Notes: generated by a model from the letters alone, not told the origin. DNA of 64,000 nucleotides from Candidatus Methanomethylicus oleisabuli (GCA_001717025.1 MAGU01000068.1:307-64306); one strand, 5' to 3'; shown: positions 19,440-63,831, counted from the first letter of the stretch. A program made the numbers and translations.

Positions 19440-19454
19440 CCGATAACACCTTTT

Positions 19455-20235: not shown

Positions 20236-20244
20236 GCCGCTAAA

Positions 20245-22004: not shown

Positions 22005-22062
22005 TTGTATGCATAAATCATATATTTACGGCACCATAATTGGAGTAGGGCGCATTTAATCT

Positions 22063-23034: not shown

Positions 23035-23054
23035 GACTATTGTGAAGTGATCAA

Positions 23055-23837
23055 ATGCCCAAGCTGGACCGGTTCCGGAGCACGCTTATAGGCGTCGCGT
23101 CTTTGGCGACATTCGTCATCATCTGGCAAGTGGTGACAATGGTAGCGAACTCGCCGTTTCTGCCAACACCCGTTCAGGTATTTGAGGCATTCATAAAGAT
23201 CAGCACAATTGGGGATATTGATGGCTATACCCTGTGGTGGCACATTGGATTTAGCCTTTACCGTGTTCTGCTAGGCTTTGCCGTCGCAATCGTAACCGCT
23301 GTCCCTCTCGGGATCTTGATGGGGGTCAAGCCCGTGGTGAAGAGCGTCGCATCACCAGTAACCGAGATCGTCCGTTTCATACCTCCTATCGCATGGATCC
23401 CCCTATCGATCATCTTGTTCAGTGGCATCAACAGATACATCTTCCTTCTTTGGATTGGCATCTTCTTCCCCATCCTCCTCGACACAATAGCAGGCGTCAA
23501 ACGCACATCCGAAACACAGGTCAATATGGCAAAAACCTTCGGCGCCGACAACAAAGCAATCATAAAGAAGATCATCTTTCCTAGCGCACTACCCGAGATT
23601 ATGAACGGTCTAAGGGTTGGCCTAGGTGTTGGGTGGATGTGCATTGTGGCAGCAGAGATGATGGGAGGGGAGCCAGTCGGGCTAGGGCGCCTAATCCTGA
23701 AATATGCAAACCTCCTCCAGATCGACGTTGTAGTTCTTGGGATGGTTGTAATAGGTTTGGTAGGGCTCGCTATGAATTACCTGATACTATCCGTCGAGCG
23801 CAGGCTCTTCAAATGGCGCGTGGAGATTAAAGCGTAG
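23055..23837 (+). CDS. ABC transporter permease (NitT/TauT family)
   Basis: 6-TM permease with EAA-like loop. Confidence 0.8.
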
Positions 23838-24601
23838 TGACCATTATGCCACCCTTGATAATTGCAAAAGGATTAAGTAAAAGCTTCTTCGCTGGTAAAG
23901 AGACGATAAGCGTTATTGACAATCTCGATCTCTCAATCGATGAGGGGCGATTCGCATGCATAGTCGGTCCATCTGGTTGCGGAAAGACGACCCTTCTAAA
24001 GATCCTTTGTGGGCTCGAAAAACCGACGGCTGGTAGCATGCTTATTCACGGTCAACCCCCAGACCCAAAGAAGCAGCGATTTGGGGTGATCTTCCAGGAG
24101 GACTCTTTGCTTCCTTGGCTCAACTTACTGAATAATGTAAAACTGGGGCTTGAGCTCTGCCATATCGACAATGCAGAGGAGATCGCGATCAAATACATAG
24201 ACCTTGTAGGTTTGGAAGGTTTTGAGAAGTACTTCCCCCATCAGATCTCTGGCGGGATGAAGAAACGTGTCGCTATCGCTAGGGCTCTGGCTGTAGACCC
24301 TGAGATAATACTCATGGACGAGCCATTTGCCGATTTAGACGCGCAGACTCGATCTATGATGCAGAAGGAGCTCCTCTCGATTTGGTCTAAACTTAACAAA
24401 ACCATCGCATTCATAACGCACAACGTAGATGAGGCCGTCTTCATCGGTCAGTCCGTATATGTACTGACTAAGCGCCCCACAAAGGTGAAGGCTACCGTAT
24501 CTATCGATATCGACCATCCGCGTTCTAGGCTAAGCCCACCATTCATATCATACCGGGAGAAGATCCTCGGCATGCTTCAGGAGGAGATAACTAGTCTGTG
24601 A
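23837..24601 (+). CDS. ABC transporter ATP-binding protein (NitT/TauT family)
   Basis: Walker [10 protein letters not shown], signature [12 protein letters not shown], Walker B ILMDEP. Confidence 0.85.
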
Positions 24602-24611
24602 GCTGACCCAA

Positions 24612-25157
24612 ATGCAAGAAGAACATGATGTGTGTGCCGACCTCATAGCCTCAGCCTTAACATCTAACCAGGCATTCATAGGCTCTTTAAAGAGCATAAT
24701 GCGACAGAGGGGCTTGTCTATGAAAGACCTGAGTGATGGCTCAGGAATCCCCTTGAGCACCTTGAACAAGGCTATCTCTGAGGAGCGGGACCTTCGCCTC
24801 TCAACTCTGCGCCAGATCATTAATTACTTCAGGCCAAAATCAAATGTCCGCGAGAGCGATATTGTTGTGGGGCTGATCGCAGCAAGGTCATCGCTGGACA
24901 AGTTCTCCAAGCGAAACATCGAGTTCAACGGTAGGAGGGTGTCCGTCAAAGAGTATCCTGCGCCCGACATCGAAGGCGCAATAATAAGCGCTATCAGGGC
25001 CGAACGCGAAGTTGACGGCATCGTGTGCGCCTCAATTGTGGCTAGCATAATTGAGAAGTTCGTCACCTTGCCCATAATGGCCATCAATATTGATGAATCA
25101 AACATAATGGCTTCAATTTCTACATTAATCGAAAAAATTACGTCAAAATGCAAATGA
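24612..25157 (+). CDS. XRE-like HTH DNA-binding protein with a C-terminal uncharacterised domain (candidate mcr-proximal regulator)
   Basis: HTH segment GLSMKDLSDGSGIPLSTLNKAISEERDLRLSTLRQIINYF. Lies immediately upstream of mcrB on the same strand. Confidence 0.5.
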   Translation: MQEEHDVCADLIASALTSNQAFIGSLKSIMRQRGLSMKDLSDGSGIPLSTLNKAISEERDLRLSTLRQIINYFRPKSNVRESDIVVGLIAARSSLDKFSKRNIEFNGRRVSVKEYPAPDIEGAIISAIRAEREVDGIVCASIVASIIEKFVTLPIMAINIDESNIMASISTLIEKITSKCK

Positions 25158-25234: not shown

Positions 25235-25295
25235 CACTCCTTTATTTTTTAATGCACCTTCTTGTATTTGTAAGCAATGTTTTAATATTTCCGCT
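25235..25295 (+). promoter_or_regulatory. Putative mcr promoter region (TATA-like TTTATTTTTTAA and TTTTAATATTT)
   Basis: AT-rich boxes 40-100 nt upstream of mcrB. The mcrB RBS GAGAGGAG sits 7 nt before the ATG. Confidence 0.35.
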
Positions 25296-25335
25296 AGGTT
25301 ATTTAGACCGCAACAAAACTCTAGAGAGGAGTCCT

Positions 25336-26670
25336 ATGGCGAAATATTCAGATAAAGTAGATCTATACGACGATCGAGGACGTGTTTTCGCCTCTAAGGT
25401 TCCTTTAGAGGCTTTGAGTCCATTGCAAAACCCAGCAATACAAAAAATTGTCTCTTTCGTGAAACAGTGCGTCTCCGTCAATCTAGAGGGCGTTGAGAAG
25501 TCTCTTGCGACTGGAGCAGTCGGTGGCAAGTCATGCATTATTAACGGAAGGTCTCTTAAATTGGACCTTGTTAAGAATGCAGGAAGCATTGCCGATACGA
25601 TTAAAAAGACTCTCCAGGTCTCGGCCGACGATGATACCGATGTAAAGGTCCTCAAGGGTGGGAAGCACCTTCTAGTGAGAGTCCCAGCCAAGAGGATGAA
25701 TGCCGGTGTCGAATATACCACAGGAGCAACCTCAACCGCAGCGGCCCTCTGTTGTGCTATTGTCGACAACTTCAATGTTGGCATCTGGGATGCGGACTTA
25801 GTTCATGCCTCTGTTTGGGGTAGATACCCTCAGACAATGGAAATGCTAGGCGGAAACGTGTCTTCGTTACTATCCGTTCCACAGCAGAATGAAGGTATGG
25901 GATACGCTCTTAGGAACGTTCCTTGCGCACACATTGCCTTGATTACAAGGAAGAATGCCATGAACGCTGCAGCCCTTTCCTCAATAATGGAACAGGCTGC
26001 GATGTTTGAGATGGGCGATGCTATTGGCGACTTCGAGAGGCTCCATATTCTGGGCCTTGCCTACCAGGGGTTGAACGCAAACAACTTGGTATATGATATC
26101 GTCAAAGCGAATTCAAAGACCGGCACTCTGGGCGATGTAGTTATATCCACTGTGAAGAGGGCAATTGACGATGGCGTAATCAAGCCACTTGCAAAGGCGC
26201 CATCTGGCTACATAAACTACACGACTGACGACCTCAACAAATGGAACGCATATGCCTCAGCGGGTCTTCTTGCCGGAACAATGGTGACTTGTGGTGCAGC
26301 AAGATCAATGCAGCATACACCATCTGTATTCATCTACTTCAACGACCTAATCGAAAGGGAGACGAGCCTGCCAGGTGTGGACTTTGGCAGAGTTGAAGGT
26401 ACAGGTGTTGAGATGGCCTTCTTCAGCCATTCTATATATGGCGGAGGCAACCCTGCCGTATTTGCCGGCAACCATATCGTGACAAGGCACAGCAAGGGCT
26501 TCACGATACCGTGCGTCGCGGCAGCAGTAGCTCTTGACGCTGGAACAACCATCTACACACCAGAGAAGATCTCTGGCACGATTGGTGAGGTGCTGAGTGA
26601 AGTAGCCGAGCTAAGGGAGCCTCTGAAGTATGTCAATGAGGCCGCAGTAGCAATCAAGGGAGGAGTCTAA
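25336..26670 (+). CDS. mcrB: Methyl-coenzyme M reductase beta subunit
   Basis: Full-length McrB-like sequence of about 445 aa from [15 protein letters not shown] with a strong SD. The longer track ORF from 25252 is unlikely. Confidence 0.93.
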
Positions 26671-27462: not shown

Positions 27463-29133
27463 ATGAGCTCAGAGAATAAAATGTTCATAGAAGCGCTTCG
27501 CAAGAAATTCAAAGAAGCGCCAGAGGACAAGAACACGAAATACTACATCTACGATGGCTGGAAGCAGTCGAAGAGGAAGAGAGAGTTTGTAGAAGCTGCC
27601 AAGAAGGTTGCAAAGGAGAGGTCGATCCCATTCTACAACCCTGATATGCACCTCGGTGGAATACCGATGGGGCAGAGGGTACTGATGCCCTACAGAATTT
27701 CCAACACCGACGTATACGTGGAGGGCGATGACCTGCACTTTGTCAACAACGCTGCTATGCAGCAGATGTGGCACGACATCAGGAGGACCGTAATCGTCGG
27801 TCTAGACTCTGCCCACACCGTGTTGCAGAAGCGTCTTGGCAAGGAAGTGACTCCGGAGACAGTCAATCACTACCTAGAAGTGCTGAACCACGCACTCCCG
27901 GGCGCCGCAGTCATCCAAGAGCATATGGTTGAAACCAACCCAGGTCTAGTGTCTGATAGCTACGTCAAGGTCTTCACCGGCGACGACGAACTGGCCGATG
28001 AGATTGACCCGCGCATGCTGATCAACATCAACAAGGAATTCCCTGCAGACCAAGCGGCATCCCTCAAGAAGGCTATCGGCAATAAGATCTACCAAGTGCT
28101 GCACATGCCAACAATTGTCTCAATGACCTGCGATGGTGGGACCATGTCAAGGTGGGCCGCTATGCAGATCTCCATGTCCATGGTGAACACCTACAAGCTG
28201 ATGGCAGGTGAAGCCGCTATCGGCGAGTTCGCGTTCGCGGCAAAGCACGCTGAAGTCATCGAGATGGGAACACTCATGCCATGGCGGCGCGCTAGGGGTC
28301 CAAACGAGCCTGGCGGCATACCTCTTGGATACATGGCGGATATATGCCAAGGATCGAGGGTAAAGCCAGAAGACCCTGTTTGGGTTGCGCTTGAGTCAAT
28401 CTCAATGGCAGCGTTGCTGTATGACCAGATCTACTTCGGCAGCTATATGTCAGGCGGCGTAGGATTCACGCAGTATGCAACATGCACATACACCGACAAC
28501 GTCCTAGACGACTTCTGCTACTACGGCGCAGACTACGTCAAGAAGAAATACGGCGGCTTTGCAAAGACCAAGCCAAGCTGGGACCTGATCAAGGACGTGG
28601 GAACTGAAGTAACGCTGTACGGCCTTGAGCAATATGAGAAGTACCCGGCGCTCATGGAGACCCACTTCGGCGGCTCACAGAGGGCAGCGGTGGTGTCTGC
28701 GGGCGCAGGTGTTGCGGTGTCTCTGGCTACAGGGCACTCGACCGCTGGCATCAACGCTTGGTATCTGAGCCAACTGCTCCACAAGGAGGCGATGGGAAGG
28801 CTTGGATTCTATGGCTATGACCAGCAGGACCAGTGCGGTTCAGTCAACAGCTTCTCATACAGGAGCGATGAGGGTCTGCCGTTCAACCTGAGGGGCGTCA
28901 ACTACCCCAACTATGCGCTCAACGTAGGTCACCAGTCTGCATACTGTGGCATCGTTTCTGCTGCGCATGGCGGAAGGAATGACGCTTGGACGACCAGCCC
29001 GCTCATCAAGGTGGCATTTGCCGACAAGGACCTGAAGTTCGACTTCACACACCCGAGGCTATGCTTCGCAAAAGGTGCGCTGAGGGAGTTCGTCCCAGCC
29101 GGCGAGAGGGACTTGATAATCCCGTCGCACTAA
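27463..29133 (+). CDS. mcrA: Methyl-coenzyme M reductase alpha subunit
   Basis: Canonical McrA motifs: AKHAEV (methyl-His site), [13 protein letters not shown] (methyl-Arg site), GFTQYA (methyl-Gln site), [12 protein letters not shown] (thio-Gly, didehydro-Asp and methyl-Cys positions at nt 28813-28836), and YxxxxGGSQR. Confidence 0.95.
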
Positions 29134-50810: not shown

Positions 50811-51359
50811 TCACAGCCTCCATGCCGCCTCTGCTTGCCTCTTCCACTCTTCCTTTATGGGATCCTCTGCAGCAACTATTGTGATCTCGCCATCTTTCTT
50901 TATGACATGACGCACGCGGAACCCTTCGGGTATTATGCGCAATGCTAGCTCATTCACCTTTGATCCAACGTCGATTGGCTTATCGCGTATCTTTAGCCTC
51001 TTTACATCCTCTGCCTCAACACCATCGACCCTTATCTCCAACCTGCTGCCCTGCTCAACCCTGTCTCTCCCGTATGTTGTCCATAGCGTCTTGAGTGCGT
51101 CCCCAACGTCAACCTCGCTGTAGAGGGTTATCTTCACCCCGTCCATGCGCGACTCTATGCTCCCTAGATCTGCTATACTGTTCTTACCTGCGAACTCTTT
51201 GTACCTTATGCTTATTATGAAAAATGGTTCTTCTGGTCTTATGCACATCCAAATGCCTTCGACAGTGCCTGTAAGTCCCAAGTCCTCAACGGTCTTCTCT
51301 GCGATGTACTTGTACTGCTCCCCTCCGGTTCTATCAGTGGAATCGACGGTTGTCTGCAT
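50811..51359 (-). CDS. Candidate methanogenesis marker protein 17
   Basis: 182 aa, by size and context. Confidence 0.35.
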   Translation of the reverse strand: MQTTVDSTDRTGGEQYKYIAEKTVEDLGLTGTVEGIWMCIRPEEPFFIISIRYKEFAGKNSIADLGSIESRMDGVKITLYSEVDVGDALKTLWTTYGRDRVEQGSRLEIRVDGVEAEDVKRLKIRDKPIDVGSKVNELALRIIPEGFRVRHVIKKDGEITIVAAEDPIKEEWKRQAEAAWRL

Positions 51360-51773
51360 TCAGCTCTCACCGCCCTCCATGATCTTCTTAAGCTTGTCGA
51401 CCTCGATCTTGCGCTTCCCCTCATCCTCTTTCCCCTCAATCGCTGGGCTTTCCAGCGCCTTCGATACATTCTTCAAGACCTCCCTCTCCATAGAAAGCAT
51501 GTGATAGCCTGGCCTTGGTCCACCGCCCCTCTTAGCACGGCAGATGCGATTGTCGCCAATCTTGTAGCCCCTCTGCTTGTAAAATACCCTATTCGGATCT
51601 ATGGCCTTGAGCTCATTTATTGTTGCCATCACCTTCTCCTCCTCGCCCTCAAGAAGGAGTCCATAGCAAGTCTCTTTGTAGTCCACGTCCCCTCTACTTG
51701 CTACCTTCTCCGCGAGCATCGACGGCGTCAGGTTGGAATCTGAAGAGAGCACCACAAGGTAAGTCTTTATCAT
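51360..51773 (-). CDS. Candidate methanogenesis marker protein 6
   Basis: 137 aa, by size and context. ATGA overlap with the upstream gene. Confidence 0.35.
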   Translation of the reverse strand: MIKTYLVVLSSDSNLTPSMLAEKVASRGDVDYKETCYGLLLEGEEEKVMATINELKAIDPNRVFYKQRGYKIGDNRICRAKRGGGPRPGYHMLSMEREVLKNVSKALESPAIEGKEDEGKRKIEVDKLKKIMEGGES

Positions 51774-53332
51774 CGTTGCCCCTCCATTATGTATATCTCC
51801 TCGCCCTCCTTGAGCCCCCTCAAAGGCTCCATATTGCTGACGACCTCGCCGATAATGTTCGTTCCATCGAATGCCTCAGCAGTAGGTCCGAATCTGTCGC
51901 TCTCTGTGAATCTAATCCCAATCATTCCCGTGAACTTCTTAACGCTGTTGGTAACGCCTATCTGACCCCCTTTGACCAACGAGGTTGGTATGTTCTCGGG
52001 CATTAGCCCCTTGGCTAGAGACTCGTTGCCCTTGAATAATATCAGATCCATCTTAGGGGCAGAGAAGTATGTCTCGAGTTTCCCAAACCGCCGGAGTTCG
52101 AGGCCGGTGACTACCCTGAAGTACCTTGCAGATACCGGGGCATCCTCATTGTAGAGGCGGATCTTTACGATCTTATCCTGCCCTACGCCGATCGTCTTGA
52201 CCGCCTTCTTAGCAACGATCTCCAATGAGTTGCTAGGCAAATGCTCTACAACAATTGCAGAATCTGATTTGTCGCCCAGCCTCTCGACACTTATTCCCTG
52301 CTTTGCTAGAAACGCCTCAGCCTCGGCCTGCGTCTTTCCAAGAATGTCAATGCGCTCTTGGGAGGCTGAGACCGCGATCCTGTCCCCCTCCTCAGAGACA
52401 TCCGCAAGTTCCATCCCGCTTATTATTTGCCCCGCTATCGAATGGCTTGCGCTTAAAGGCGCCTCTGCCGTATATACGTATATCGCGCCTGCATTGCTGC
52501 CCGTGTTTCTAACGGTTAGTGTACCGCGGTGCCTCTCGCCCAGACCTTCGGCTGCCAGTGAAGCTAGTCCAACCCTGTTGTCAGATATGAACCTGCTTGT
52601 TTTGGATCTGACCTCCATCCATCCCTTTCCAAACACGTTATAAACATGTTCACTCGATGCCGGCGAGGCGCCGTCCAACTCTATGGTCATCTTGGTGATT
52701 AAGCTGTCTCCTTCTTCAAGCACATAATCGCCGTCGATCTTAATGACTGATTTGGAAGCCTCCTTCATTTCTATGACCGGTTCGATCTTGATTATTCTGT
52801 CGCCCATCTTCATGCTCTCTACGAGGTGCCTTCCATAAACCACTCTGCCTATAACGCCGCAGCCCTTTGGGGGGGAGTAGTTGCCTATATGCGTCTTCTT
52901 ACCGAAGACTATATGCGTGTTCTCGCTACTGAATCCAGATAGGCTTAATGCCACTTCGTTCTTCTTCATCTCAAACTGCTCATTTGAAGGTTCAAAATCA
53001 GTTGAGATCTGACCGAATACGGTCGCATCTCTGGTAGACCATCTTACGCTCGTTCCTTCAAACGATCTGAAATGCCTCCTCCACCCGTCGAGCACTCCCT
53101 GGCAATCTATCTTTATTATGAGCCTGCCCTTTGTAGTCTCTATGCTGAATAGGTCTGTAACCACCCTCTCAATGGCGACCTTCTTCCTCAAGGCAAGGAT
53201 GCACCCCCTGTCAGATTCACAAATCTTCTTCAATACTTGATTGACGGTAGTTCCGGTCGCAATATCGATGGTCTGCCCGTTTATACTTGCCTTCAATGGA
53301 TGCCATCCCAACCTGTAGTGTAGTTTATCCAA
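51770..53332 (-). CDS. Candidate methanogenesis marker protein 3
   Basis: 520 aa. First gene of the operon, divergent from mcrDC. Confidence 0.45.
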   Translation of the reverse strand: MDKLHYRLGWHPLKASINGQTIDIATGTTVNQVLKKICESDRGCILALRKKVAIERVVTDLFSIETTKGRLIIKIDCQGVLDGWRRHFRSFEGTSVRWSTRDATVFGQISTDFEPSNEQFEMKKNEVALSLSGFSSENTHIVFGKKTHIGNYSPPKGCGVIGRVVYGRHLVESMKMGDRIIKIEPVIEMKEASKSVIKIDGDYVLEEGDSLITKMTIELDGASPASSEHVYNVFGKGWMEVRSKTSRFISDNRVGLASLAAEGLGERHRGTLTVRNTGSNAGAIYVYTAEAPLSASHSIAGQIISGMELADVSEEGDRIAVSASQERIDILGKTQAEAEAFLAKQGISVERLGDKSDSAIVVEHLPSNSLEIVAKKAVKTIGVGQDKIVKIRLYNEDAPVSARYFRVVTGLELRRFGKLETYFSAPKMDLILFKGNESLAKGLMPENIPTSLVKGGQIGVTNSVKKFTGMIGIRFTESDRFGPTAEAFDGTNIIGEVVSNMEPLRGLKEGEEIYIMEGQR

Positions 53333-53417: not shown

Positions 53418-53747
53418 TTGTCCGATTCTTCTGAGATATGTGAAATAGAGGTCATGCCTAGGCGATTAATGAGCACCGAGAAAGGCGAATCTCTGGTTTC
53501 AGCGCTCAATGGAGATGATAGGGTCGTAGAGGTCCTTATTCATGGTCCAAAATATCGTGATGGCAAACAAATTATAGGGCGTTTCATAATCAGGCTTGTG
53601 CCAGGTACTGCGCCGGAAGTTATTCTATCCTCCTTCAAGCCTACATTCGAGTCCACAATGCCCTTCGGGTACGATGTCAGGATAGGGCGATTTACAAAGC
53701 CAAAGCCGACTGTAAAGGATTACCTGTCAGGCAGAGTTAGCAGGTGA
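53418..53747 (+). CDS. mcrD: Methyl-coenzyme M reductase operon protein D
   Basis: TTG start giving MSDSSEICEIEVMPRRLMSTEKG... C-terminal FGYDVRIGRFTKPKPTVKDY resembles the McrD C-terminus. ATGA overlap with mcrC. Confidence 0.55.
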   Translation: MSDSSEICEIEVMPRRLMSTEKGESLVSALNGDDRVVEVLIHGPKYRDGKQIIGRFIIRLVPGTAPEVILSSFKPTFESTMPFGYDVRIGRFTKPKPTVKDYLSGRVSR

Positions 53748-54436
53748 TGCGGTTGAAGGAGTCGATAGGGCGGGAGGCGCAGATCGTAGATTGCAGAGAA
53801 TCGATGGGCATTGGGGAGGGCGGCGGGCTGGCACAGAGGGGAACGATATCTGAATCAGAGGCGTTCGAGGTGGTAGCCGTAGCAATGTCCCCCTCCAAAA
53901 GGCACATCACCAAGCCCGTGTGTGAGATCACTTACGGATTAAGGGAACAAGGGATCCGGACGAGCGTTCTCGTGCTTGAGTCTGGCTCCGGCGTGCCGCC
54001 AGAATCCCCGTACGGCGGCGCTCCTGGTGGATCCATGGCGGGGATCAACGAAAAAGAGATATTGCAGGTGCGGCGCTTCAAGATAGCCCTCTTCCATCTG
54101 GGCGGCATCACGGGTCACGTCGTGCACAAGGCAAAGTCTTTCTTACGTTATGCCGACATCCCTACCATCATAGTCTGTGAGGCACCAGTGGACTATGAAG
54201 ATTTTGCCAAGGTAGGCATAGTCACGCGGCTAGTAAGGCCACCGCCTGGAAAGGTGGAGGTCGCAGGAGTCATAGTGGACCTGATCACCGGCGTTGTGAG
54301 GGGAGTTAGTTGCCCTCGCGACAAGCTAAATGAGATAGTTATAAAAGTGAAGTATTGGTTGAGCAAGGCGAGTAGTGGCGAAATCACCTTAGGGGGCGGA
54401 TCGTTTGGCAAAGATCTTCATATTCCCGCCGAATAG
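53744..54436 (+). CDS. mcrC: Methyl-coenzyme M reductase operon protein C
   Basis: VDCRESMGIGEGGG, RHITKPVCEITYGLRE, VCEAPVDYEDFAKVG and GVSCPRDKLNEIV motifs match the McrC family. Confidence 0.75.
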   Translation: MMRLKESIGREAQIVDCRESMGIGEGGGLAQRGTISESEAFEVVAVAMSPSKRHITKPVCEITYGLREQGIRTSVLVLESGSGVPPESPYGGAPGGSMAGINEKEILQVRRFKIALFHLGGITGHVVHKAKSFLRYADIPTIIVCEAPVDYEDFAKVGIVTRLVRPPPGKVEVAGVIVDLITGVVRGVSCPRDKLNEIVIKVKYWLSKASSGEITLGGGSFGKDLHIPAE

Positions 54437-54869
54437 CCTCATACTTTACGATCTGGTTGTTCGAGAAGGCCACACCCCTCTGGGTCTTGGCGAAGAGGTT
54501 TCCAAGAATTTGGGCAAGCCTGAGATCGACTCGCCTCCTATGAACATAACCCCCGATTTCCCGAGAAGGGGGCTCAAATACGCTGCAATCGAAGTGCCCG
54601 CCGGCGTCAGAGGGCGCCTGGCATTGATGGGCCCTCTGATCGAGGATGCCGATGGCGCAATCATCGTGGACGAGTCCGAGGCACTGTTTGGATGCGCAAG
54701 TTGCGCACGAACAAACGAATTTCTGCTCTATCTGATCAAAAGGAGGGGCATTCCAAGCATTCATGTTCCATATCCTAAGGATGAAGCAGACGCCAAAATA
54801 ATGGTATACAAAATCAAGTCTTTCCTGAAGAATATGGGTGAAAAAGATGGTAAGCCTAACAATAGCTGA
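54405..54869 (+). CDS. Hypothetical 154-aa protein co-operonic with mcrDC (possible methanogenesis marker, e.g. Mmp5-sized)
   Basis: 32-nt overlap with the mcrC 3' end. CASCAR motif. Confidence 0.4.
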   Translation: MAKIFIFPPNSLILYDLVVREGHTPLGLGEEVSKNLGKPEIDSPPMNITPDFPRRGLKYAAIEVPAGVRGRLALMGPLIEDADGAIIVDESEALFGCASCARTNEFLLYLIKRRGIPSIHVPYPKDEADAKIMVYKIKSFLKNMGEKDGKPNNS

Positions 54870-55353
54870 TGATAAACTGCCTGCTTTCTGCAGCTCAATA
54901 ATGGATGAGGCGCTACGCGAGATCATACTGTTGCTGAGCGATGGGCCACTCAACGCCGAAAAGATTGCCGAGATTATGGGCATAACTCAGCAGGACTCTG
55001 AAGGCAGGCTCGAGAGGCTCTATTCGGCAGGGCTGGTCAGAAAGACCCGAGTGCCGGAGGGCGTTCTACTCTTCTCTTTGGACTTTTCAATGGAGCGGCT
55101 GGGTAGCCCTTATGACAAAAAGATCGCGGAGCCGCTTGCGTCAGACCTTTCCAAGACCATTCAATCTTTTCTAGAGTCACACGCCTCCGAGGTATCGTCC
55201 TCATGCAGCAATATCGGCATGTCCCTAGGGCGAGCGGTTGAGCAGCTCTTCCTCACCTCATTCTCGTCGATAATGGGGCGTCTACAAGCCGAGATCGTTG
55301 AGGAGGACAAGGGGCTCAGTAAAGCCCTCGCTGAAGAGGAACAAAAACAATGA
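54838..55353 (+). CDS. Winged-HTH (ArsR-like) transcriptional regulator
   Basis: HTH EKIAEIMGITQQDSEGRLERLYSAGLV. Confidence 0.5.
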   Translation: MKKMVSLTIADDKLPAFCSSIMDEALREIILLLSDGPLNAEKIAEIMGITQQDSEGRLERLYSAGLVRKTRVPEGVLLFSLDFSMERLGSPYDKKIAEPLASDLSKTIQSFLESHASEVSSSCSNIGMSLGRAVEQLFLTSFSSIMGRLQAEIVEEDKGLSKALAEEEQKQ

Positions 55354-55357
55354 TGCA

Positions 55358-55612
55358 CTACTTGAATTTTTCAAGCATCTCTTCCATCTTCTTTACTATA
55401 TACTCTCGCGCCCTGATGAGTTGATCCTTCTCACCCTTTATGACCCATGATTTTGGCATCATAGGGCTATCCGCCATCTCCGGAATGTTTACTTCCTTAT
55501 CTGTAAGCTCTACGCCGAATTTGTTAACCGCCTCAGCTATGATCGAGTAAGGCGTCCCAGCCGGTATCGGAAAATAGAATGTCTCGCTCTCTCGAGTTAC
55601 TTTATCTACCAT
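55358..55612 (-). CDS. Small hypothetical protein (84 aa)
   Basis: Coding-like composition. Adjacent to the HD hydrolase gene. Confidence 0.3.
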   Translation of the reverse strand: MVDKVTRESETFYFPIPAGTPYSIIAEAVNKFGVELTDKEVNIPEMADSPMMPKSWVIKGEKDQLIRAREYIVKKMEEMLEKFK

Positions 55613-56458: not shown

Positions 56459-57703
56459 CTATCTGCCAAGCAACTCCTTTGCCCTTGCCACGCTGAAATT
56501 GCCCTCTCTCGCAAGGATCTCGGCTACCCTCTCCGCCTCCACTCCTGTTGCCCCTGCCATTGCCGCCACATTTCGCGCATGCAGCTTCATGTGCCCTTTC
56601 TGGATGCCCTCTGTCACAAGCGCCCTCAGTGCTGCAAAGTTCTGCGCCAGCCCCAGCGCTGCAGTGACCTCAGCGAGCTCCCTCGCACTCTTGATTCCCA
56701 TCAGCTTGAGGGCAAATTGTGCAGTAGGGTGCGTCTTCGTTGCACCGCCAACTGTGCCAACGGCCATAGGAAGTTCAAGCTCACCATGAAGGTTTCCGTT
56801 CGAATCTCTGCTCCATTTGGAGAGGGATGTGTATCTACCGCCGATCGCTGCGTATGCGTGAGCCCCTGCCTCGACCGCCCTTGTATCATTAGCTGTGGCG
56901 AGGACCAACGCCGTTATCCCATTCATTATGCCCTTGTTGTTGGTTGCGGCGCGGTAAGGATCGGCAGCCGCAAATTTGTATGCGCGGACTATCCCGTCAA
57001 CAACACCTTCGCCGCCGATGCTTTCCTTGTCATATGTTACTGCCGCCTTGGCTAGCCGCTCTGTCGCTAGGTTGGATAGAATGCGAAGAAGCGCCCTTCC
57101 CTTGGCTAGTGCTTCTATCTCGGCGGTCATGCCCTCGACTACCGTGTCAATCGTGTTTGCTCCCATCGCATCTCTGCAATCGATAAAGAATTCTACAATC
57201 AGCATCTCTTCCCCTGCATGCAGAATCCTTGCTTCGATGCCAACCACGCCCCCTCCAAGTGCAGGAAGCAGACCTGCGTGCTTATTCGCTTCAACGATCA
57301 GCCTGTCCTTCTCAGCCTCAATTCGTGCTTTTCCAGTGGCAGCGTCTTCGACATCGACCAGCTGTATCTGTCCCCTCATGACCGGTCTCGTGCTCGTTGC
57401 CGTGAATCCGGCAGGGAGCGCAAGTTTTGCAGCATAACTTGCAGCCGCTATGACCGACGCCTCTTCCGTAGCCATGGGTATCAGTATTTCTTTTCCATTT
57501 ATCTTGAAGTTGGTGGCTACTCCCAAGGGAATCTGCATTGTGCCTATTGCATTCTCAACCATCAGGTTTGCCGATTCCAACGTCAGCCCATCAGCAAGCG
57601 CCTTGAGGTCTTCATCAGAGACGCCTGCCACCTCCTTGAGTAGCTTGCGGCGCTCTTCTAATTCTCTCTTATAGAATCCTTTCAGTTGAGAACCCATGGT
57701 CAT
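56459..57703 (-). CDS. hmgA: HMG-CoA reductase (class I, archaeal)
   Basis: ENAIGTMQIPLGVA and DAMGAN catalytic motifs. Confidence 0.85.
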   Translation of the reverse strand: MTMGSQLKGFYKRELEERRKLLKEVAGVSDEDLKALADGLTLESANLMVENAIGTMQIPLGVATNFKINGKEILIPMATEEASVIAAASYAAKLALPAGFTATSTRPVMRGQIQLVDVEDAATGKARIEAEKDRLIVEANKHAGLLPALGGGVVGIEARILHAGEEMLIVEFFIDCRDAMGANTIDTVVEGMTAEIEALAKGRALLRILSNLATERLAKAAVTYDKESIGGEGVVDGIVRAYKFAAADPYRAATNNKGIMNGITALVLATANDTRAVEAGAHAYAAIGGRYTSLSKWSRDSNGNLHGELELPMAVGTVGGATKTHPTAQFALKLMGIKSARELAEVTAALGLAQNFAALRALVTEGIQKGHMKLHARNVAAMAGATGVEAERVAEILAREGNFSVARAKELLGR

Positions 57704-58400
57704 TTGTATGCCCTTCTATGAGTCTTAATACCTCTATTACACCGTACCCATCCTCATACTCACATATTATGTCCGCAATAGCCTTGAGCTCAGGAACGGC
57801 GTTCTTCACCGCGACGCCTACGTCGGATGCCCTGAGAAGCGACAGATCATTGAGGTCATCACCGATTCCAAGGAGCCTGGTGCATCCCATCCTCTTCATG
57901 ACTTCTCTGACCCCCCTGCCCTTGTTCCATCCCTTTGGCATTATTAATAGCCCTTCTTTATTGAACTCCATCTCGACCTCATCGCCAAGGCCCGCCTCCC
58001 CAATCTTGGTTGCTAGCTCAAGTGCATCGTCCTTGTAACCGGCGAGCACAACATCGCCTGTGTAGACCCTCATACCGCTCTTGTTCATTATGCCCGTGAT
58101 CTCGGACCTTATCTTGCCCCATCTTTCGCTCTTAACTAAGATCTCTTTACTTCTTCCACCATCCGTATTCATTATTGTGCCGTTCTCGGTTACTATGACA
58201 TCAAATACCCTCAACACATCCCTGTCCGGGATATCATCAAACCTCCTGCCGGTAGCAAGCATGCGCTTGAAATGAACGAACCGCATTAGCTCCTCCTTGA
58301 CGTCATCGCTGATCATGAAGCCTTTTCTCTCGTCAGCTATGGTCCTATCATAATCCATTGCTACGGCATCCACGTTTATTTTCAAGTAAGCAAACCCCAC
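57669..58400 (-). CDS. HAD-IIB sugar-phosphate phosphatase (MPGP/SPP-like)
   Basis: Motif I AMDYDRT and motif IV GIGDDLNDLSLL. Cap-2 architecture. Confidence 0.6.
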   Translation of the reverse strand: MGFAYLKINVDAVAMDYDRTIADERKGFMISDDVKEELMRFVHFKRMLATGRRFDDIPDRDVLRVFDVIVTENGTIMNTDGGRSKEILVKSERWGKIRSEITGIMNKSGMRVYTGDVVLAGYKDDALELATKIGEAGLGDEVEMEFNKEGLLIMPKGWNKGRGVREVMKRMGCTRLLGIGDDLNDLSLLRASDVGVAVKNAVPELKAIADIICEYEDGYGVIEVLRLIEGHTNDHGFSTERIL

Positions 58401-58409
58401 TCCCTAAGC

Positions 58410-59657
58410 CTATGTCAGCAGTTCTCGATAGAGTGCCAGGTGGTCCTGGACTCCCCTCTCTGTTGAAAAGTTAGTCTGATATATCTTCTTGCCGTTATCT
58501 CCCATCTCTCGCGCCCTTCCAAAATTAGTTAGGACGTAATCTATGGCCTCTGCCAGCGCCGTAGCGTCATTCGGCTTGACGATGTAGCCGTTGACGCCTG
58601 GCCAAATCTGCGTGGGTATTCCTCCCACAGCGCTTCCGATTACGGGCCTCCCAAAAGCCATCCCCTCAGTTATAGCCAGACCGAAACCCTCTTGGTGCGA
58701 TGGAAGGACAACCAGATCGCATTCCTTGTATGCGCTCATTAGCGAATCCCTGTCGATTGCTCCTGTGAACAGTACCTTGTCCTTAAGGTTGTATTCATCG
58801 ACCTTCTCCTTCAGCTCCTTCTCGTAATCTTCCTTCTCCTTGATCTTCAGGAACTCCTTCGTTACTGAACCATTTCCTATGAAGATGATCTTGCAGTCTG
58901 ATTTCATCCTCGAGGCGGCATCAAGCAATACGCTCTGCCCTTTCAGCTTATCAATCCTGGCCACGCACAGTATAATCTTGGCGTTTTTGGATATGCCGTA
59001 GCTTTTTCTGAACGACCGCTTCGGCTCCTCCACATCAATGAAGGGCGGTATGCAGCAGGGTTTTTTCCAAACAAGGCCCGATTTTAATGCCGCATTTATG
59101 TACGGCTTCGTTGAAAATACTACCTTTGAATACTCGTTCAGCTCCTTTACTATCTGCTCTCTCCAACTCTGGTGTACCTCCTCCGTAAATGGTATGTGCC
59201 AAGTGAAGGGCATAGGCAATCCGAGCCTCTTTAGGATCCCTCCGAGGGGCAGGAGCTGGAAGTCATGGACATGGATGATGTCTGGCTTCGAGATGTCCGC
59301 CACCTCTCTTATCCTTTCAGCAAATATCTCGTTGACCTTGATGTATCCCTCATACCCATAGAGGTGTTTGTTATACAGCTTGTCTAGAGCGGACTCTTTC
59401 CCATGGAATATCTTCAGAATCAACTCCTTATAAGTCGAGTACCCAGCCATCGTAGCGCCGTCAATGGAGCCATCTTTAGGTACTCGATAAACACTCATCC
59501 CCTCGATAGCGGTGTCCGAACTCCCCTTTGGGGTCTTTAAATTTATGAACACTACCGTGTGGCCTAGCTGCCTCAACCTGCGGCCTAGCCAGAAGAGGTA
59601 ATATGAAACTCCGCCCGTGCTGGGATAAAACGATTGACTTACATAGAGGATCTTCAA
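58410..59657 (-). CDS. GT4-family glycosyltransferase (sugar-phosphate synthase-like)
   Basis: GT-B fold with EGFGLAITEGMAFGRPVIGS motif. 415 aa. Confidence 0.75.
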   Translation of the reverse strand: MKILYVSQSFYPSTGGVSYYLFWLGRRLRQLGHTVVFINLKTPKGSSDTAIEGMSVYRVPKDGSIDGATMAGYSTYKELILKIFHGKESALDKLYNKHLYGYEGYIKVNEIFAERIREVADISKPDIIHVHDFQLLPLGGILKRLGLPMPFTWHIPFTEEVHQSWREQIVKELNEYSKVVFSTKPYINAALKSGLVWKKPCCIPPFIDVEEPKRSFRKSYGISKNAKIILCVARIDKLKGQSVLLDAASRMKSDCKIIFIGNGSVTKEFLKIKEKEDYEKELKEKVDEYNLKDKVLFTGAIDRDSLMSAYKECDLVVLPSHQEGFGLAITEGMAFGRPVIGSAVGGIPTQIWPGVNGYIVKPNDATALAEAIDYVLTNFGRAREMGDNGKKIYQTNFSTERGVQDHLALYRELLT

Positions 59658-61300
59658 ATCAGCCCACCATTCATTATTATCGAAAGCTGAACCTTGTTGA
59701 TCGCCCCTTGGTTTCTCAGAACAGTGATTCCATTTTTGAGCCTGTCCCTATTCTTTGCATTTAGTATGTCGAACAGTTCTCTGGAATCAAATAGAATCAC
59801 TGCGATGTTGTCCCAATTCCCTTCGAGGTAGCTCACCACTTTTTCTGACACTTTGATTTTTTCATACGGCTCCTCCTTTCCATTCTCCTTAATTATTATT
59901 GGAGGCTCGATGATGCTCATGTTCTGATCCTTGGAGACGAGGTAGAACGGCACGTAGATGACCTCGAGGTCTCTCTGGACGGTGTCCGCTTTCATGAATA
60001 TATCCTTATATTTGTCCAGCTCCTCCTCCGCCTTCTTATGGACGTCCTCAAGTAGTTCCTTCTGCCTTACGTAAGCCATCCTCTTCTCATTCATCTTAGT
60101 TTTTATCTTGAGTAGAGCCCGCTCCTTTTTCGATATTAGGTCATCGAGCTCTTTGATCACGAACTCCCTCCTCTTAAGGAAACACTCCTCGATCTTCTTC
60201 CGTTCAAGGTCCTCGTTAGATGGCAGTAGCTTCTCCTTCTCCATTATTTTGTTAAGGTCTGCCTCAAGCAACCTTAATTTTTTGTTGATCTTCGATTGCT
60301 TCTCCTTCAGTTCTGCTATCTCCTCCGTGAGGGCGAAGATTCGATTTGTCAGCCTCTCTTTCTCCTTCTTCATCGCCTCTTTTTCTAAAACGACGTCCTT
60401 GATCTCAAGAAGCTTTACCGTATCGTTCTCAATCTTCTCCTTCTTCAAACTCAATGCCGAGATATTGTCCTCTAGCCTTGTTATCTCGTTCTTGGCATGC
60501 TCCCTCTCCTCATAAGCCTTATTGATGGTCTTCTCTATCTCTGCTGCATTCGACCTTGTGTCTTTGAGAGTCCGTTCAATGAAGTCGCACTCATTTTTGA
60601 GGCTGTCCATCTTCTTCTCCAATTCTGTTCTGAACTCCTTGATGACCGACCTCTCAACATTATCAACGAGGTTCTCAATCTCTTGGTTCTTCTGCGCAAT
60701 CTTCTCCTCATACTCTTTCTGTAGTTGCTCGTATTCACTGGTAAGGGGGTCCATGTCTTCCTTATACTTCCTCTCCATCTCATCTATCGTCTTTCTGATG
60801 CCCAATGCCGAATTTTTCGTCTTCAGGTAAATGCTGTACAACCCGTCTGCCACGTTCTTGGTCTTGCTCTCATCCAGCGCAGGCCACAGCGCCAACCCAT
60901 CATTTATCTCTATATCGTAAGCGGCAGCGTTCCACTCAGATAGGCTTATGCCTTTGCCGTTCTCAATGAGTGGCAGCTCATAGGTCTTTAGTGTGTAAAG
61001 CTGGTAGTCCTCGCTTCCACCTAAATATTCGCTTACCCTGCAACTATGCAGCGCCATACCATCTACCGCTACTGCCGCATCCCCCTCTTTTATAAGATAT
61101 ATCGGATAATACATTTTATAAACGAAGTCAATTTTACTTTTATCCTCTTGAAACAGCCTGAAGATGCTCCTCCACTTCTTGCCCATTACATTGAATACTT
61201 TTAGAAGGACCAGCGCATCCCCAGCTTCAGGTGGCAACGCTTTCTTTGTTCCATCCTTTCTTTGGACAAATGCGAAATTAATCACGCGCATCTCTCTCAA
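59654..61300 (-). CDS. Large coiled-coil protein (N-terminal globular domain, E/K-rich coil of about 280 aa, C-terminal globular domain)
   Basis: 548 aa. AT-rich codon usage distinct from the flanking genes. 4-nt overlap with the GT4 gene. No NTPase motifs. Confidence 0.55.
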   Translation of the reverse strand: MREMRVINFAFVQRKDGTKKALPPEAGDALVLLKVFNVMGKKWRSIFRLFQEDKSKIDFVYKMYYPIYLIKEGDAAVAVDGMALHSCRVSEYLGGSEDYQLYTLKTYELPLIENGKGISLSEWNAAAYDIEINDGLALWPALDESKTKNVADGLYSIYLKTKNSALGIRKTIDEMERKYKEDMDPLTSEYEQLQKEYEEKIAQKNQEIENLVDNVERSVIKEFRTELEKKMDSLKNECDFIERTLKDTRSNAAEIEKTINKAYEEREHAKNEITRLEDNISALSLKKEKIENDTVKLLEIKDVVLEKEAMKKEKERLTNRIFALTEEIAELKEKQSKINKKLRLLEADLNKIMEKEKLLPSNEDLERKKIEECFLKRREFVIKELDDLISKKERALLKIKTKMNEKRMAYVRQKELLEDVHKKAEEELDKYKDIFMKADTVQRDLEVIYVPFYLVSKDQNMSIIEPPIIIKENGKEEPYEKIKVSEKVVSYLEGNWDNIAVILFDSRELFDILNAKNRDRLKNGITVLRNQGAINKVQLSIIMNGGLI

Positions 61301-61799
61301 ACCTTCACTCTATCTTTGACAATTTATCCGAGCGTCTGAACTTTGGCAGGCAATGCGTGCCTAGCCTTTCTATATGTTCTATTGGATTATTCTCCGTCTT
61401 AGCTATTTGCATGCATATTTAGCTTATCCCTTTTTGCTTGCGCCATCCTTCCATTTGCCACACAATCGTCGCAGACCTCAAGCAGTTTAATTTAAACGCC
61501 CGAATCTTGGCTCTCTATGCTCCGGCTACAGCAAGGGCATAATCAACTCTTTTTACAAGCGGTTGATTGTATCGGCCCTCAGGCTTGCTTGTTAGTTGCT
61601 GGCGAGGCATCATTCTTTGGCTCGCCGGCAGGGTGCCATTAATATTCGATGCCCAAGCACAACCGCGCCTCTTCCTGTATTGTTTATATAGCGGTTTTCG
61701 TTACATCTTCACTCGCCTTTGCTTACATAAGCGCTGGCGGCATGGCTGCTGATGCTGTGGCTTGGGATCAGCATATTTTAGTAAATTTGGTGCTTCATC

Positions 61800-62669
61800 A
61801 TGGTCGACATGATCTCTGAGATGCTAGCCATCCTCGAAACGTCCTTCTGGCAGATAGTGGCCCTCTCCATAGGTCTTGGAGCAACCTTCATCTTTGTATA
61901 TGTCTTGAACAAACTATTGAACCGCCGGCTGAAGCAGATCTCAAAGTCCCCTTCATTGCAGACCATATATGTAGTGCTGCGCCGCCTAATTCTGGCTACG
62001 GTTTCACTTATAGGCGTCACAATCACTATTTTCTCAGTTTTTCCAAGCCTTGGCACCATGGTTGCATCAATGTTTGTGGCTGCCGGGTTCGCTTCGATAG
62101 TGGTGGGCATGGCTGCACAAACAACCCTCTCGAACATAATCTCGGGGATAATGATATCGCTGTCGCAGCCCTTCAAGATTAATGACGCCGTGACGTACAG
62201 AAATGAATTCTGTTTTGTTGAGGACATAAGGCTAACATACATCGTTTTACGGACGTGGGATAACCGCCGGCTGATGGTGCCAAACTCGTTGATACAATCC
62301 GAGGTCATCATTAATTACACGGCAGTAGATCCGACCGTTTTAGTCCCCGTCATAATAACAATCTCATACAAGTCTGATGCTGACAAGGCAATGAGAATAT
62401 TGGTCGATATAGCGAAGAAACATCCCGACTGTCTGCCTATCGGGGATCTACCGAACGCCGTCATAATGGACTTCGATACTACCGGCGTCAAGATACGTCT
62501 GCTCAGCCGGGCTAAGGACCAGCCTACTGCCTTCGCGATGGCTCGCGCTATCATGGCTGATGCTAAGAGAGAGTTCGATAAGAACGGCATCGAGTTCCCA
62601 TCGATTCGAAACTACCTGATACTGGATCAAGGCACCTTCGCCTCCTTGCGTGAGTCTAAGGAGGCATGA
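61800..62669 (+). CDS. mscS: Small-conductance mechanosensitive channel (MscS family)
   Basis: 3 TM helices plus the MscS beta-domain. Confidence 0.75.
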   Translation: MVDMISEMLAILETSFWQIVALSIGLGATFIFVYVLNKLLNRRLKQISKSPSLQTIYVVLRRLILATVSLIGVTITIFSVFPSLGTMVASMFVAAGFASIVVGMAAQTTLSNIISGIMISLSQPFKINDAVTYRNEFCFVEDIRLTYIVLRTWDNRRLMVPNSLIQSEVIINYTAVDPTVLVPVIITISYKSDADKAMRILVDIAKKHPDCLPIGDLPNAVIMDFDTTGVKIRLLSRAKDQPTAFAMARAIMADAKREFDKNGIEFPSIRNYLILDQGTFASLRESKEA

Positions 62670-62928: not shown

Positions 62929-63831
62929 CTATCTCCTAGCCAGCTTTATCATTGAACACAGCTCAAATATTATCTTCGATGCTACAGCCGCAGTATTCCC
63001 GTTGTCGTAGGGAGGGGATACTTCCACAAGATCGAATCCGACTATCCTGTCATCCACTGCATCGTTAAGCATATCCAGCAGATAGGTAGGCGAGATCCCC
63101 TCAGGCTCTGGGTTGCCGATCCCTGGGGCATAAGCTGGATCGAGGACATCTATGTCGATCGATACGTATATCTTCCGGGCGCCCTCAAGCCTCTGCTTTA
63201 GCCATCTAGCCGAGGTATTGGCGTCTGATCTGAGCATCTCGCGGGCGCTGATATAATCTATGCCCTTCTTCCTGACCGCCTCGATCTCTTCGCTATATGT
63301 GGCGCGCACCCCCGCAAGTACGATCTTTCCGGAAGCGATCTCTTCAAGCGATCTTCTCATCACACATGCATGCGACATCCTGTTGGACAGATACTCATCG
63401 CGCATATCGAAGTGGGCATCAAACGAAACGACCGTTACGTCCTTTATCGCCTTCACGGCACCAAGCGTTACGGAGTGCTCTCCACCAATCATTACCGGTA
63501 CCTTCCTCGTCGCAATGATGTCCTCCACAGTCTCGCTGACCCTCCTTATTGTCTCAGCGGAATCTCCGTGGACTACCGCAATGTCGCCTAGATCGTGAAT
63601 CTTTATGTCCTCAAAATCCATTCCTGTCCTCCAGGACCAGGTCTCAAGATTCGCCGAGAGCTGCCTCAATGCGTTGGGTGCAAACCTGGAGCCCGGTCTG
63701 AAACTGGATGTGCTGTCGAATGGGACCCCGAAGAGAACGAAGTCTGCCTCAGAGAATTCTGTCTGGAACCCGGCAAATGATTTTGACGCATCGTCCACAT
63801 AAAACGCTTCTTTCAATGCAAGACACCCCAT
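62929..63831 (-). CDS. speB: Agmatinase / arginase-family ureohydrolase
   Basis: Mn-binding motifs GGEHS, DAHFD and SIDIDVLDP. Confidence 0.8.
   Translation of the reverse strand: MGCLALKEAFYVDDASKSFAGFQTEFSEADFVLFGVPFDSTSSFRPGSRFAPNALRQLSANLETWSWRTGMDFEDIKIHDLGDIAVVHGDSAETIRRVSETVEDIIATRKVPVMIGGEHSVTLGAVKAIKDVTVVSFDAHFDMRDEYLSNRMSHACVMRRSLEEIASGKIVLAGVRATYSEEIEAVRKKGIDYISAREMLRSDANTSARWLKQRLEGARKIYVSIDIDVLDPAYAPGIGNPEPEGISPTYLLDMLNDAVDDRIVGFDLVEVSPPYDNGNTAAVASKIIFELCSMIKLARR

Follow-up and report, generated by a model that had tools for sequence, protein, structure and literature searches.

The locus studied here raises the question of whether a short AT-rich group of archaeal genes is a foreign genomic island or an inherited metabolic module, and what part is played in it by a protein that matches no named family. 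The genes lie in a 64,000-nucleotide (nt) stretch of Candidatus (Ca.) Methanomethylicus oleisabuli (GCA_001717025.1 MAGU01000068.1:307-64306), the whole of which is called the window below. An initial annotation had described a HAD-IIB phosphatase, a GT4 glycosyltransferase, a protein of 548 amino acids (aa) with a long coiled coil and an MscS channel as an AT-rich osmoadaptation island, and all four were recovered in the present study as open reading frames (ORFs) at the same positions (Table 1). Herein, we propose that the locus is a vertically inherited solute-synthesis module, comprising a GT4-type trehalose-6-phosphate synthase (TPS), a HAD phosphatase and a coiled-coil partner protein, and we give this reading about an even chance of being correct. 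Positions are those of the whole window, L numbers denote the loci of relatives, and P numbers denote homologous proteins or clusters.

The drop in GC content that suggested an island is real, with 0.465 across 58.4-61.7 kb compared with 0.515 +/- 0.022 for all 3.3-kb segments, and the region is the lowest in the window. The drop in codon usage that had been reported with it was not observed. The GC content at third codon positions (GC3) was 0.574 for the HAD gene, 0.613 for GT4, 0.601 for the coiled-coil gene and 0.600 for MscS, compared with 0.606 +/- 0.049 for 53 ORFs, and in synonymous-codon distance the same genes ranked 38th, 41st, 51st and 25th of 52, placing the first three among the least deviant in the window. 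The GC dip arises at the second codon position of the coiled-coil gene, where GC2 is 0.255 (z about -3.6), and is an effect of amino-acid composition, because the encoded protein is rich in K, E, I, L and N. In addition, the gene order agmatinase - (MscS and/or a helix-turn-helix (HTH) regulator) - coiled-coil - GT4 - HAD - HMG-CoA reductase - HD - MJ0093, continuing into DUF2112 - McrC-like - McrD, is kept across Methanomethylicia, including loci in which the identity of the coiled-coil protein drops to just 33-36%. This synteny extends over at least seven Methanomethylicia lineages and includes all the Methanomethylicia loci fetched. No plasmid match for the region was obtained with tblastn, and no integrase, tRNA or repeat boundary was noticed, though no dedicated tRNA or repeat scan was made. 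Because of the normal codon usage and the synteny, the locus is regarded as vertically inherited in Methanomethylicia and not as foreign DNA. A horizontally acquired AT-rich island would account for the lowest GC content among the 3.3-kb stretches, but with a dip confined to one codon position of one gene, typical synonymous codons, shared gene order and no plasmid match, this explanation can practically be dismissed. As a separate observation, the most codon-deviant and lowest-GC3 genes of the window (0.50-0.57) are located elsewhere, at 18882-25157 and 50811-51359; they comprise an ABC transporter cluster of the NMT1 type together with an HTH_3 gene (22063-25157), the genes for POR-gamma, a hexapeptide transferase, DUF2124 and DUF4443 close by, and one DUF2113 gene.

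The GT4 protein is, by its profile matches (PF00534 Glycos_transf_1, 148.6 bits; PF13439, 51 bits) and by the motifs RIDKLKG at residue 234, which holds the R/K donor-phosphate pair, and EGFGLAITE at residue 323 (E-x7-E), a retaining GT-B glycosyltransferase of family GT4. Residues 53-189 give a partial match to PF00982 Glyco_transf_20 (56.8 bits, gathering cutoff 32.5), and the TreT_GT1 model of the TreT N-domain and the OtsA models are matched as well. Moreover, residues 118-409 match TreT in the PDB (2x6q, E 5.7e-18), and in BLASTP with E. coli OtsA (E 8e-9) the segment DIIHVHDFQLLP...HIPF aligns with DIIWIHDYHLLP...HIPF; the TreT motifs HDPQP and WRCHID are replaced in the GT4 of the window by HDFQLLP and TWHIPF. 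Judged by these similarities, the enzyme shows homology to TreT as well as to OtsA/TPS, as is the case for Saci_1249-like synthases. The best PDB sequence match is sucrose-phosphate synthase (SPS) Tll1590 (6kih, E 1.3e-26), in the C-domain only; the C-domain is generic for GT4 and the acceptor-side N-domain resembles trehalose enzymes.

The adjacent phosphatase belongs, by profile and motif, to subfamily IIB of the HAD superfamily, with 70.6 bits on PF08282 Hydrolase_3 (cutoff 20.9), a marginal pass on TIGR01484 HAD-SF-IIB (41.9, cutoff 41.8) and intact catalytic motifs in a motif scan (DYDRT at residue 16, TGR at 50 and GDDLND at 180). The TIGR01482 SPP-subfamily model (79.6, cutoff 107) and a phosphoglycolate-phosphatase model were matched below their cutoffs, and the Pfam and NCBIfam scans gave no canonical trehalose-6-phosphate phosphatase (T6PP) match (PF02358 or TIGR00685). 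The suggestion in the initial annotation that the two enzymes form a sugar-phosphate synthase/phosphatase pair is supported by gene fusions. Within the 110 nearest homologues of GT4, about 30 clusters (P0118-P0147), which are 36-40% identical to the GT4, are single GT4-HAD fusion proteins of 645-655 aa with a Hydrolase_3/S6PP (PF05116) HAD part, found in Woesearchaeota and in candidate phyla radiation (CPR) bacteria, e.g. Chisholmbacteria, and the HAD of the window is 28-31% identical to their HAD domain (E 5e-21). These fusions are probably bifunctional disaccharide-phosphate synthase/phosphatases; one of them is annotated merely as 'phosphoglycolate phosphatase'.

The genes neighbouring the GT4 orthologues are those of trehalose metabolism. 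The Ca. Hecatella locus, with a GT4 54% identical to that of the window, encodes a T6PP scoring above its equivalog cutoff (187 bits on TIGR00685, cutoff 68), a TreT-like synthase scoring about 450 bits on NF041139 lies beside the cluster in the Methanomethylicia loci L012 and L016, with HDPQP and WRCHID present in the L012 ORF, and the Methanocella orthologue (41% identical) abuts an archaeal TreH1-like trehalase and a HAD gene. On the basis of the similarity to both TreT and OtsA, the fusion to HAD, and the T6PP, TreT and TreH neighbours of the orthologues, we infer that the GT4 and HAD-IIB genes most likely encode a GT4-type trehalose-6-phosphate synthase/phosphatase pair. Thus, the role in compatible-solute synthesis and osmoadaptation that had been suggested for the locus is plausible, with trehalose enzymes adjoining the orthologues, but the sucrose, mannosyl and glucosyl types listed at that time are less likely than trehalose, which was not among them. 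A literature search for trehalose or compatible solutes in Methanomethylicia returned nothing relevant. Genes for CBS-domain proteins, domains that act as sensors of ionic strength and nucleotides in osmoregulatory transporters, were also observed at two relatives' loci: a four-CBS-domain protein is encoded between the TreT-like and coiled-coil genes of one Methanomethylicaceae metagenome-assembled genome (MAG) (L012, 6889-7749, minus strand), and upstream of the MscS/GT4 region of the Methanocella locus (L022, 1-2317) there are three CBS-domain genes.

The third component, the coiled-coil protein, had been described as matching no nameable family, and the searches in the present study agree. 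The full-length protein had no Pfam match, its NCBIfam and PADLOC matches were confined to the coil and far under the cutoffs, PDB sequence searches with full-length, N-domain and C-domain profiles returned coiled-coil noise only, and a Pfam search with 11 N-domains and 12 C-domains at E<=10 revealed no family. Relatives are few: 5.8 billion proteins contain 12 clusters at 90% identity, and the 1.84 billion representatives, from which a profile search retrieved 13 proteins at E<1e-30, contain about ten clusters at 50% identity; in GTDB the family occurs in six species, all of them Methanomethylicia. Two remote members, P0030 (E 9e-8; a copy truncated N-terminally by a contig end) and P0037 (E 6e-5), share the motifs K-h-[FY]-Y-P-h-[WY]-L ... 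DG in the N-domain and Y-x-P-[FC]-Y ... PP ... F-[DN]-h-L ... G-h-x-x-L in the C-domain. Through these two proteins a long form of 647-658 aa was found in Bathyarchaeia and Hecatella, in which the N-domain is followed by about 100 additional aa. A metagenome scan with the long-form alignment returned just the Hecatella locus, which was already known, and a word-indexed search with a profile of the N- and C-domains only returned just two fragments. By these searches, the family is tiny, unannotated and distributed in Methanomethylicia and Bathyarchaeia.

The genomic context of this family points to the GT4 enzyme, and the coiled-coil and GT4 genes form the conserved core of the locus. In every Methanomethylicia locus with enough sequence, GT4 lies immediately downstream of the coiled-coil gene, with a start/stop overlap or near-abutment in most of these loci. 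The gaps are bigger in L016, L019 and L021. An orthologous GT4 gene adjoins the coiled-coil gene in seven of the ten 50%-identity lineages with known context. The order is coiled-coil - GT4 - HMG-CoA reductase in the Methanosuratincola-type loci without HAD and coiled-coil - GT4 - VIT1 in the metagenomic locus of P0030, while the two genes lie on the same strand with a 68-nt gap in Bathyarchaeia and are convergent in Hecatella. In the P0030 locus, Bathyarchaeia and Hecatella, the GT4 is about 50% identical and the coiled-coil proteins are less than 20% identical. The adjacency has survived class-level divergence and a change of orientation, a persistence that plain synteny would not give; on this basis, we infer that the coiled-coil protein may serve the GT4 enzyme as an accessory or regulatory subunit. 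In the window, the two genes overlap by 4 nt, as had been noted; the shared bases are TTGA, in which a TTG start runs into a TGA stop, and not the reported ATGA, which does occur in the relative L017. Because the homologues and database copies all begin at the ATG at 61291, this is probably the true start of the coiled-coil gene, giving a protein of 545 aa. A copy with 100% identity to the protein lies on a contig of 130 kb from JGI metagenome 3300002821, and the counterpart in Ca. Methanomethylicus mesodigestus V1 shows about 84% identity.

In an AlphaFold model of the coiled-coil protein built on 22 sequences (m4874858def5a; predicted local distance difference test (pLDDT) 84), which replaced an unreliable earlier model on 10 sequences with pLDDT 40-60 in the heads, the N- and C-terminal ends are predicted to form one head on an antiparallel coiled-coil hairpin of about 140 residues, in which the helices of the two arms fold back on each other (Table 1). 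The modelled N-domain has strands at 4-6, 10-13, 19-21, 57-72, 75-80, 87-95 and 102-109 and helices at 24-35, 46-52 and 120-126. The coil region is 47% charged (E 17.6%, K 17.3%), and the net charges of the arms, -6 and +5, are complementary. A regex scan revealed no Walker A, ABC signature or CxxC zinc hook in 24 family members, and the earlier description of a globular N-domain, an E/K-rich coiled coil and a C-domain devoid of NTPase motifs is thus in agreement with model, composition and motif scan. Conserved residues are K62, Y64, Y65, P66, D80, D134 and G135 in the N-domain and Y449, P451, Y453, P466, F510, L513, N517, R520, G524 and L528 in the C-domain. The head and the head-proximal stalk contain 23 columns with at least 80% conservation, residues 236-352 contain none, and the tip is an unconserved five-residue turn without CxxC; the head and proximal stalk are conserved and the tip is a variable spacer, a pattern that favours the partnership with GT4. 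Within the second arm, L358, P360, E363 and D364 of the LLPSNED motif are invariant in ten close-family sequences, P360 is more than 90% conserved across 14 full-length short-form members, and the long-form counterparts are IPLQIED and LPREMED. This LLPSxED motif (358-364) faces conserved arm-1 residues 224-235 and is a candidate docking site or elbow. Moreover, the coiled-coil protein is 33-36% identical where GT4 is 62-64%, HAD 49-51% and agmatinase 64-73% identical, and faster divergence than the neighbours is typical of structural or adaptor proteins.

Herein, we propose the following mechanism, in which both enzymatic steps are derived from homology, gene fusion and gene neighbourhood. 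The GT4 enzyme would transfer glucose from nucleoside diphosphate (NDP)-glucose to a sugar phosphate, most likely glucose-6-phosphate, giving trehalose-6-phosphate, and the HAD-IIB enzyme would strip the phosphate to yield the free disaccharide. The coiled-coil protein, made together with GT4 by way of the overlap, would be a non-enzymatic partner whose head, at the base of a hairpin of about 20 nm, may bind GT4, and perhaps the phosphatase too, and so act as scaffold or regulatory subunit in a trehalose-synthase complex, while its charged and charge-complementary arms might, speculatively, tune activity to ionic strength or temperature. The divergently encoded MscS, as a facultative neighbour, could release the solute upon hypo-osmotic shock. 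In a bolder form, the protein would represent the first of a new class of regulatory scaffolds that are SMC-shaped but not ATPases. It would assemble GT4, plus the phosphatase where this is encoded, as an archaeal trehalose-synthase complex and, by way of its charged and charge-complementary antiparallel arms, would turn that complex on in answer to cytoplasmic ionic strength or temperature; we hold this to be improbable, but if true, a physical stress sensor would be coupled directly to compatible-solute synthesis.

Several observations weigh against the proposed trehalose module with its coiled-coil subunit. The acceptor-phosphate arginine R300 of OtsA was unmatched in the BLAST alignment, as read by eye, and the GT4 missed the equivalog cutoffs of TIGR02400 OtsA (53.6, cutoff 564.85), NF041139 TreT (71.2, cutoff 775) and TIGR02472 SPS (43, cutoff 576). 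The HAD gene is missing beside GT4 in L017-L019, including Methanosuratincola-type loci. P0016, P0022 and P0037, on short contigs, have no GT4 adjacent, the Methanocella GT4 orthologues and the fusion proteins have no neighbouring coiled-coil gene, and the long-range synteny in Methanomethylicia implies that part of the adjacency reflects shared ancestry and not selection.

The missed TPS equivalog cutoffs would also be expected if the same enzyme logic served another solute, of the sucrose, mannosylfructose or glucosyl-glycerate type, with the coiled-coil protein still an accessory subunit. Tll1590 as the top PDB match, the archaeal phosphoglycolate-phosphatase and SPP-subfamily models as the better NCBIfam models of the HAD, its weak Pfam S6PP match and the PF05116 domain of the fusions all favour this explanation. 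Nevertheless, we consider it unlikely, as the SPS match spans just the nucleotide-sugar C-domain and the acceptor N-domain matches OtsA and TreT, the neighbours of the orthologues (T6PP, TreT-like and TreH1-like) are trehalose-specific, and the TIGR02472 score of 43 compares with a cutoff of 576. The target glycosylated by GT4 could instead be a macromolecule or a lipid (an S-layer protein, glycolipid or polysaccharide, for example), with the coiled-coil protein as a membrane scaffold or molecular ruler. Some homologues are labelled 'glycosyltransferase involved in cell wall biosynthesis', the remote member P0037 is encoded near a UDP-glucose dehydrogenase and a polysaccharide flippase, HMG-CoA reductase follows the cluster in Methanomethylicia as a hint of lipid metabolism, and weak coil matches to the Wzc co-polymerase were obtained. 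However, no transmembrane or signal segment was seen in the GT4 or coiled-coil protein by eye, no predictor being used, the HAD fusion and the trehalose-enzyme neighbours suggest that the product is a small soluble molecule, the HMG-CoA reductase link is limited to Methanomethylicia, and the Wzc matches are coiled-coil noise (E about 0.004), making an envelope substrate very unlikely.

The likeness of the predicted fold to SMC, Rad50 and RecN requires consideration as well, since the coiled-coil protein might be a degenerate, ATPase-less relative of these proteins with a chromosomal or cytoskeletal role, its adjacency to GT4 being mere inherited order. The protein shares with them a modelled head, built from the N- and C-terminal parts, as the base from which a long intramolecular coiled coil with antiparallel arms extends, and a size near that of RecN (553 aa), the top Foldseek match is Rad50 (E 5.9e-5), followed by SMC arms, weak SMC, JetC and LmuB matches appear in hidden Markov model (HMM) scans, and the element order of the N-domain (three short strands, a helix and a long hairpin), as read by eye from the model, recalls that of ABC/SMC heads; the three family members not beside GT4 would also fit. 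In contrast, the sequence matches all lie in the coil and far under the cutoffs (SMC_prok_A, 24.8 bits, cutoff 729), the head domains match nothing in Pfam or the PDB, hhalign with E. coli RecN gives a probability of 0.2%, and Walker A, Walker B, signature and zinc hook are lacking. Moreover, the unconserved tip is probably no hinge, the C-domain is predicted to be helical where ABC folds hold the Walker B strand, and the gene is linked to a sugar-metabolism gene and not to DNA-metabolism genes, an adjacency that outlasts class-level divergence and reorientation. Thus, we regard this origin as quite unlikely. Homology to SMC/Rad50 fragments, which the initial annotation had named, along with a composition shift within normal genomic variance, as what would overturn it, was sought by profile, hhalign and motif scans and none was found; SMC/RecN homology was rejected on the negative hhalign comparison with E. 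coli RecN together with the negative motif scan. For EnvC (FtsEX-EnvC) and the CT398/HP0958 adaptors, the likeness is that of a generic hairpin (identity 8-14%), and their globular domains (LytM, zinc ribbon) are unrelated to those of the coiled-coil protein.

The proposed trehalose module can be compared with known systems. In Sulfolobus acidocaldarius, the GT4-like TPS Saci_1249 and the non-canonical HAD phosphatase Saci_0016 are needed under salt stress (Stracke et al. 2020, PMC7688234). By the published description, the resemblance comprises a GT4 enzyme of about 415-444 aa similar to TreT and OtsA, a HAD phosphatase of about 27 kDa instead of a canonical OtsB, an occurrence in TACK archaea and the salt-stress role. 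Unlike in S. acidocaldarius, where the genes are unlinked and no coiled-coil partner has been described, the genes are adjacent here and fused in DPANN and CPR relatives; no Sulfolobales proteins were named among the 110 closest GT4 homologues. In Thermoproteus tenax, an msc-gt-tpsp operon has been reported, the synthase of which depends on a partner protein (Zaparty et al. 2013, PMC3634074). This is likewise a Thermoproteota trehalose locus with a mechanosensitive channel, and the dependence of the synthase on a non-catalytic partner through complex formation provides a precedent for both an accessory subunit and an MscS neighbour. However, the T. tenax synthase is a GT20-TPP (trehalose-6-phosphate phosphatase) fusion activated by a PimA-like GT4 protein, whereas here GT4 is the presumed synthase and the coiled-coil protein the candidate partner, and the MscS is divergent and not conserved. 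The SPS/sucrose-phosphate phosphatase systems, exemplified by Thermosynechococcus Tll1590 (6kih), also combine a GT4 synthase with a HAD-IIB phosphatase, often fused, but the match is limited to the donor-binding C-domain, and the context elsewhere is that of trehalose and not sucrose. From these comparisons, the locus appears to be a module of the archaeal trehalose-synthesis kind plus one unannotated, consistently associated component.

To date, archaeal trehalose synthesis has been only partly mapped, and the GT4-type TPS/TPP route has been thought to be essentially confined to Sulfolobales (PMC7688234). The results obtained herein suggest that a related GT4 synthase/phosphatase pair is widespread, occurring in Methanomethylicia, Bathyarchaeia, some Nitrososphaerales, Methanocella and Asgard MAGs, with the fusion form of the pair in DPANN archaea and CPR bacteria. 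In addition, an unannotated coiled-coil family gains a function-linked context, and we hypothesize that its members serve a solute-synthesis complex as accessory or regulatory subunits. Should the coiled-coil protein act as sensor or scaffold, it would illustrate post-translational control of stress-solute synthesis in archaea.

The remaining gene of the original group was also confirmed, though as a loosely associated neighbour. The MscS-type channel is assigned by PF00924 MS_channel_2nd (62 bits), PF21082 MS_channel_3rd (32 bits) and three hydrophobic N-terminal segments seen by eye in the translation, and it does lie beside the pair as had been reported; however, it occupies this position just in the clade of the window, L009 and L010, and is absent from L001-L004, L012 and L016-L021. 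Across loci, both MscS and HAD are variable neighbours. In Methanocella, an unrelated MscS is encoded at a distance of two genes from that of the GT4 orthologue. In L001-L004, L009 and L010, the gene directly upstream of the coiled-coil gene, on the same strand, encodes an ArsR/HTH_5-type regulator (PF01022/PF12840) of about 190-205 aa with a C-terminal helical extension. A tblastn search (E<=10) of 61301-61799 revealed no remnant of it, and 57-64 kb contained no Rfam match; the HTH gene has been lost without trace in the clade of the window, leaving the 499-bp gap. A distant paralogue of the regulator (22% identity, E 1e-4) is located at 54838-55353 of the window.

Table 1. Features of the locus in the window and coordinates of related genes at relatives' loci
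Feature	Sequence	Position	Strand	Assignment or basis
HAD-IIB (Cof/SPP-type) phosphatase, 243 aa	window	57669..58400	-	proposed trehalose-6-phosphate (sugar-phosphate) phosphatase
GT4-family retaining GT-B glycosyltransferase, 415 aa, TreT/OtsA-like N-domain	window	58410..59657	-	proposed GT4-type trehalose-6-phosphate synthase
Coiled-coil protein, 548-aa ORF (probable 545 aa)	window	59654..61300	-	unannotated family; proposed GT4 accessory subunit
C-terminal head half, residues 433-548: beta-hairpin region and four helices	window	59657..60004	-	AlphaFold model
Antiparallel coiled-coil hairpin: arm 1 144-291, turn 292-296, arm 2 297-432	window	60005..60871	-	AlphaFold model
Mid-arm motif LLPSNED, residues 358-364	window	60209..60229	-	conservation; candidate docking site or elbow
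N-terminal head half, residues 1-143, mixed beta/alpha	window	60872..61300	-	AlphaFold model
Divergent intergenic region, 499 bp, between coiled-coil gene and MscS	window	61301..61799	.	
MscS-type mechanosensitive channel, 289 aa	window	61800..62669	+	Pfam match
HMG-CoA reductase	window	56459-57703		flank of block
Agmatinase	window	62929-63831		flank of block
HTH regulator gene	L001	7395-7970		
HTH regulator gene	L009	7426-7953		
HTH regulator gene	L010	7345-7842		
Long-form coiled-coil copy	L020	7254-9230	-	
Long-form coiled-coil copy	L021	3989-5932	+	
Long-form coiled-coil copy	L019	2-1612		

The genome is of the Methanomethylicus type, with mcrA (27463-29133) and mcrB (25252-26670) within the window. 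The HMG-CoA reductase ORF, which scores 424 bits on the TIGR00532 class II/NAD-type model, shares 35 nt with the end of the HAD gene (57669-57703) and directly follows the cluster in all Methanomethylicia loci, or follows GT4 where HAD is absent; co-transcription of the cluster with this isoprenoid-pathway gene is a possibility. The McrC-like, DUF2112 and small MJ0093-like genes (53744-54869 and 55358-55612) form a strongly conserved block beside the locus, and the identity of the McrC-like protein stays at 87-96% in lineages whose coiled-coil proteins show 33-84%. Two large ORFs, at 282-2537 (plus strand, 751 aa) and 51770-53332 (minus strand, 520 aa), had no Pfam match at E<=1e-5. Relatives have, in their syntenic loci, a gene of 473-512 aa beyond the McrD-like gene that carries PF26548 (DUF8179).

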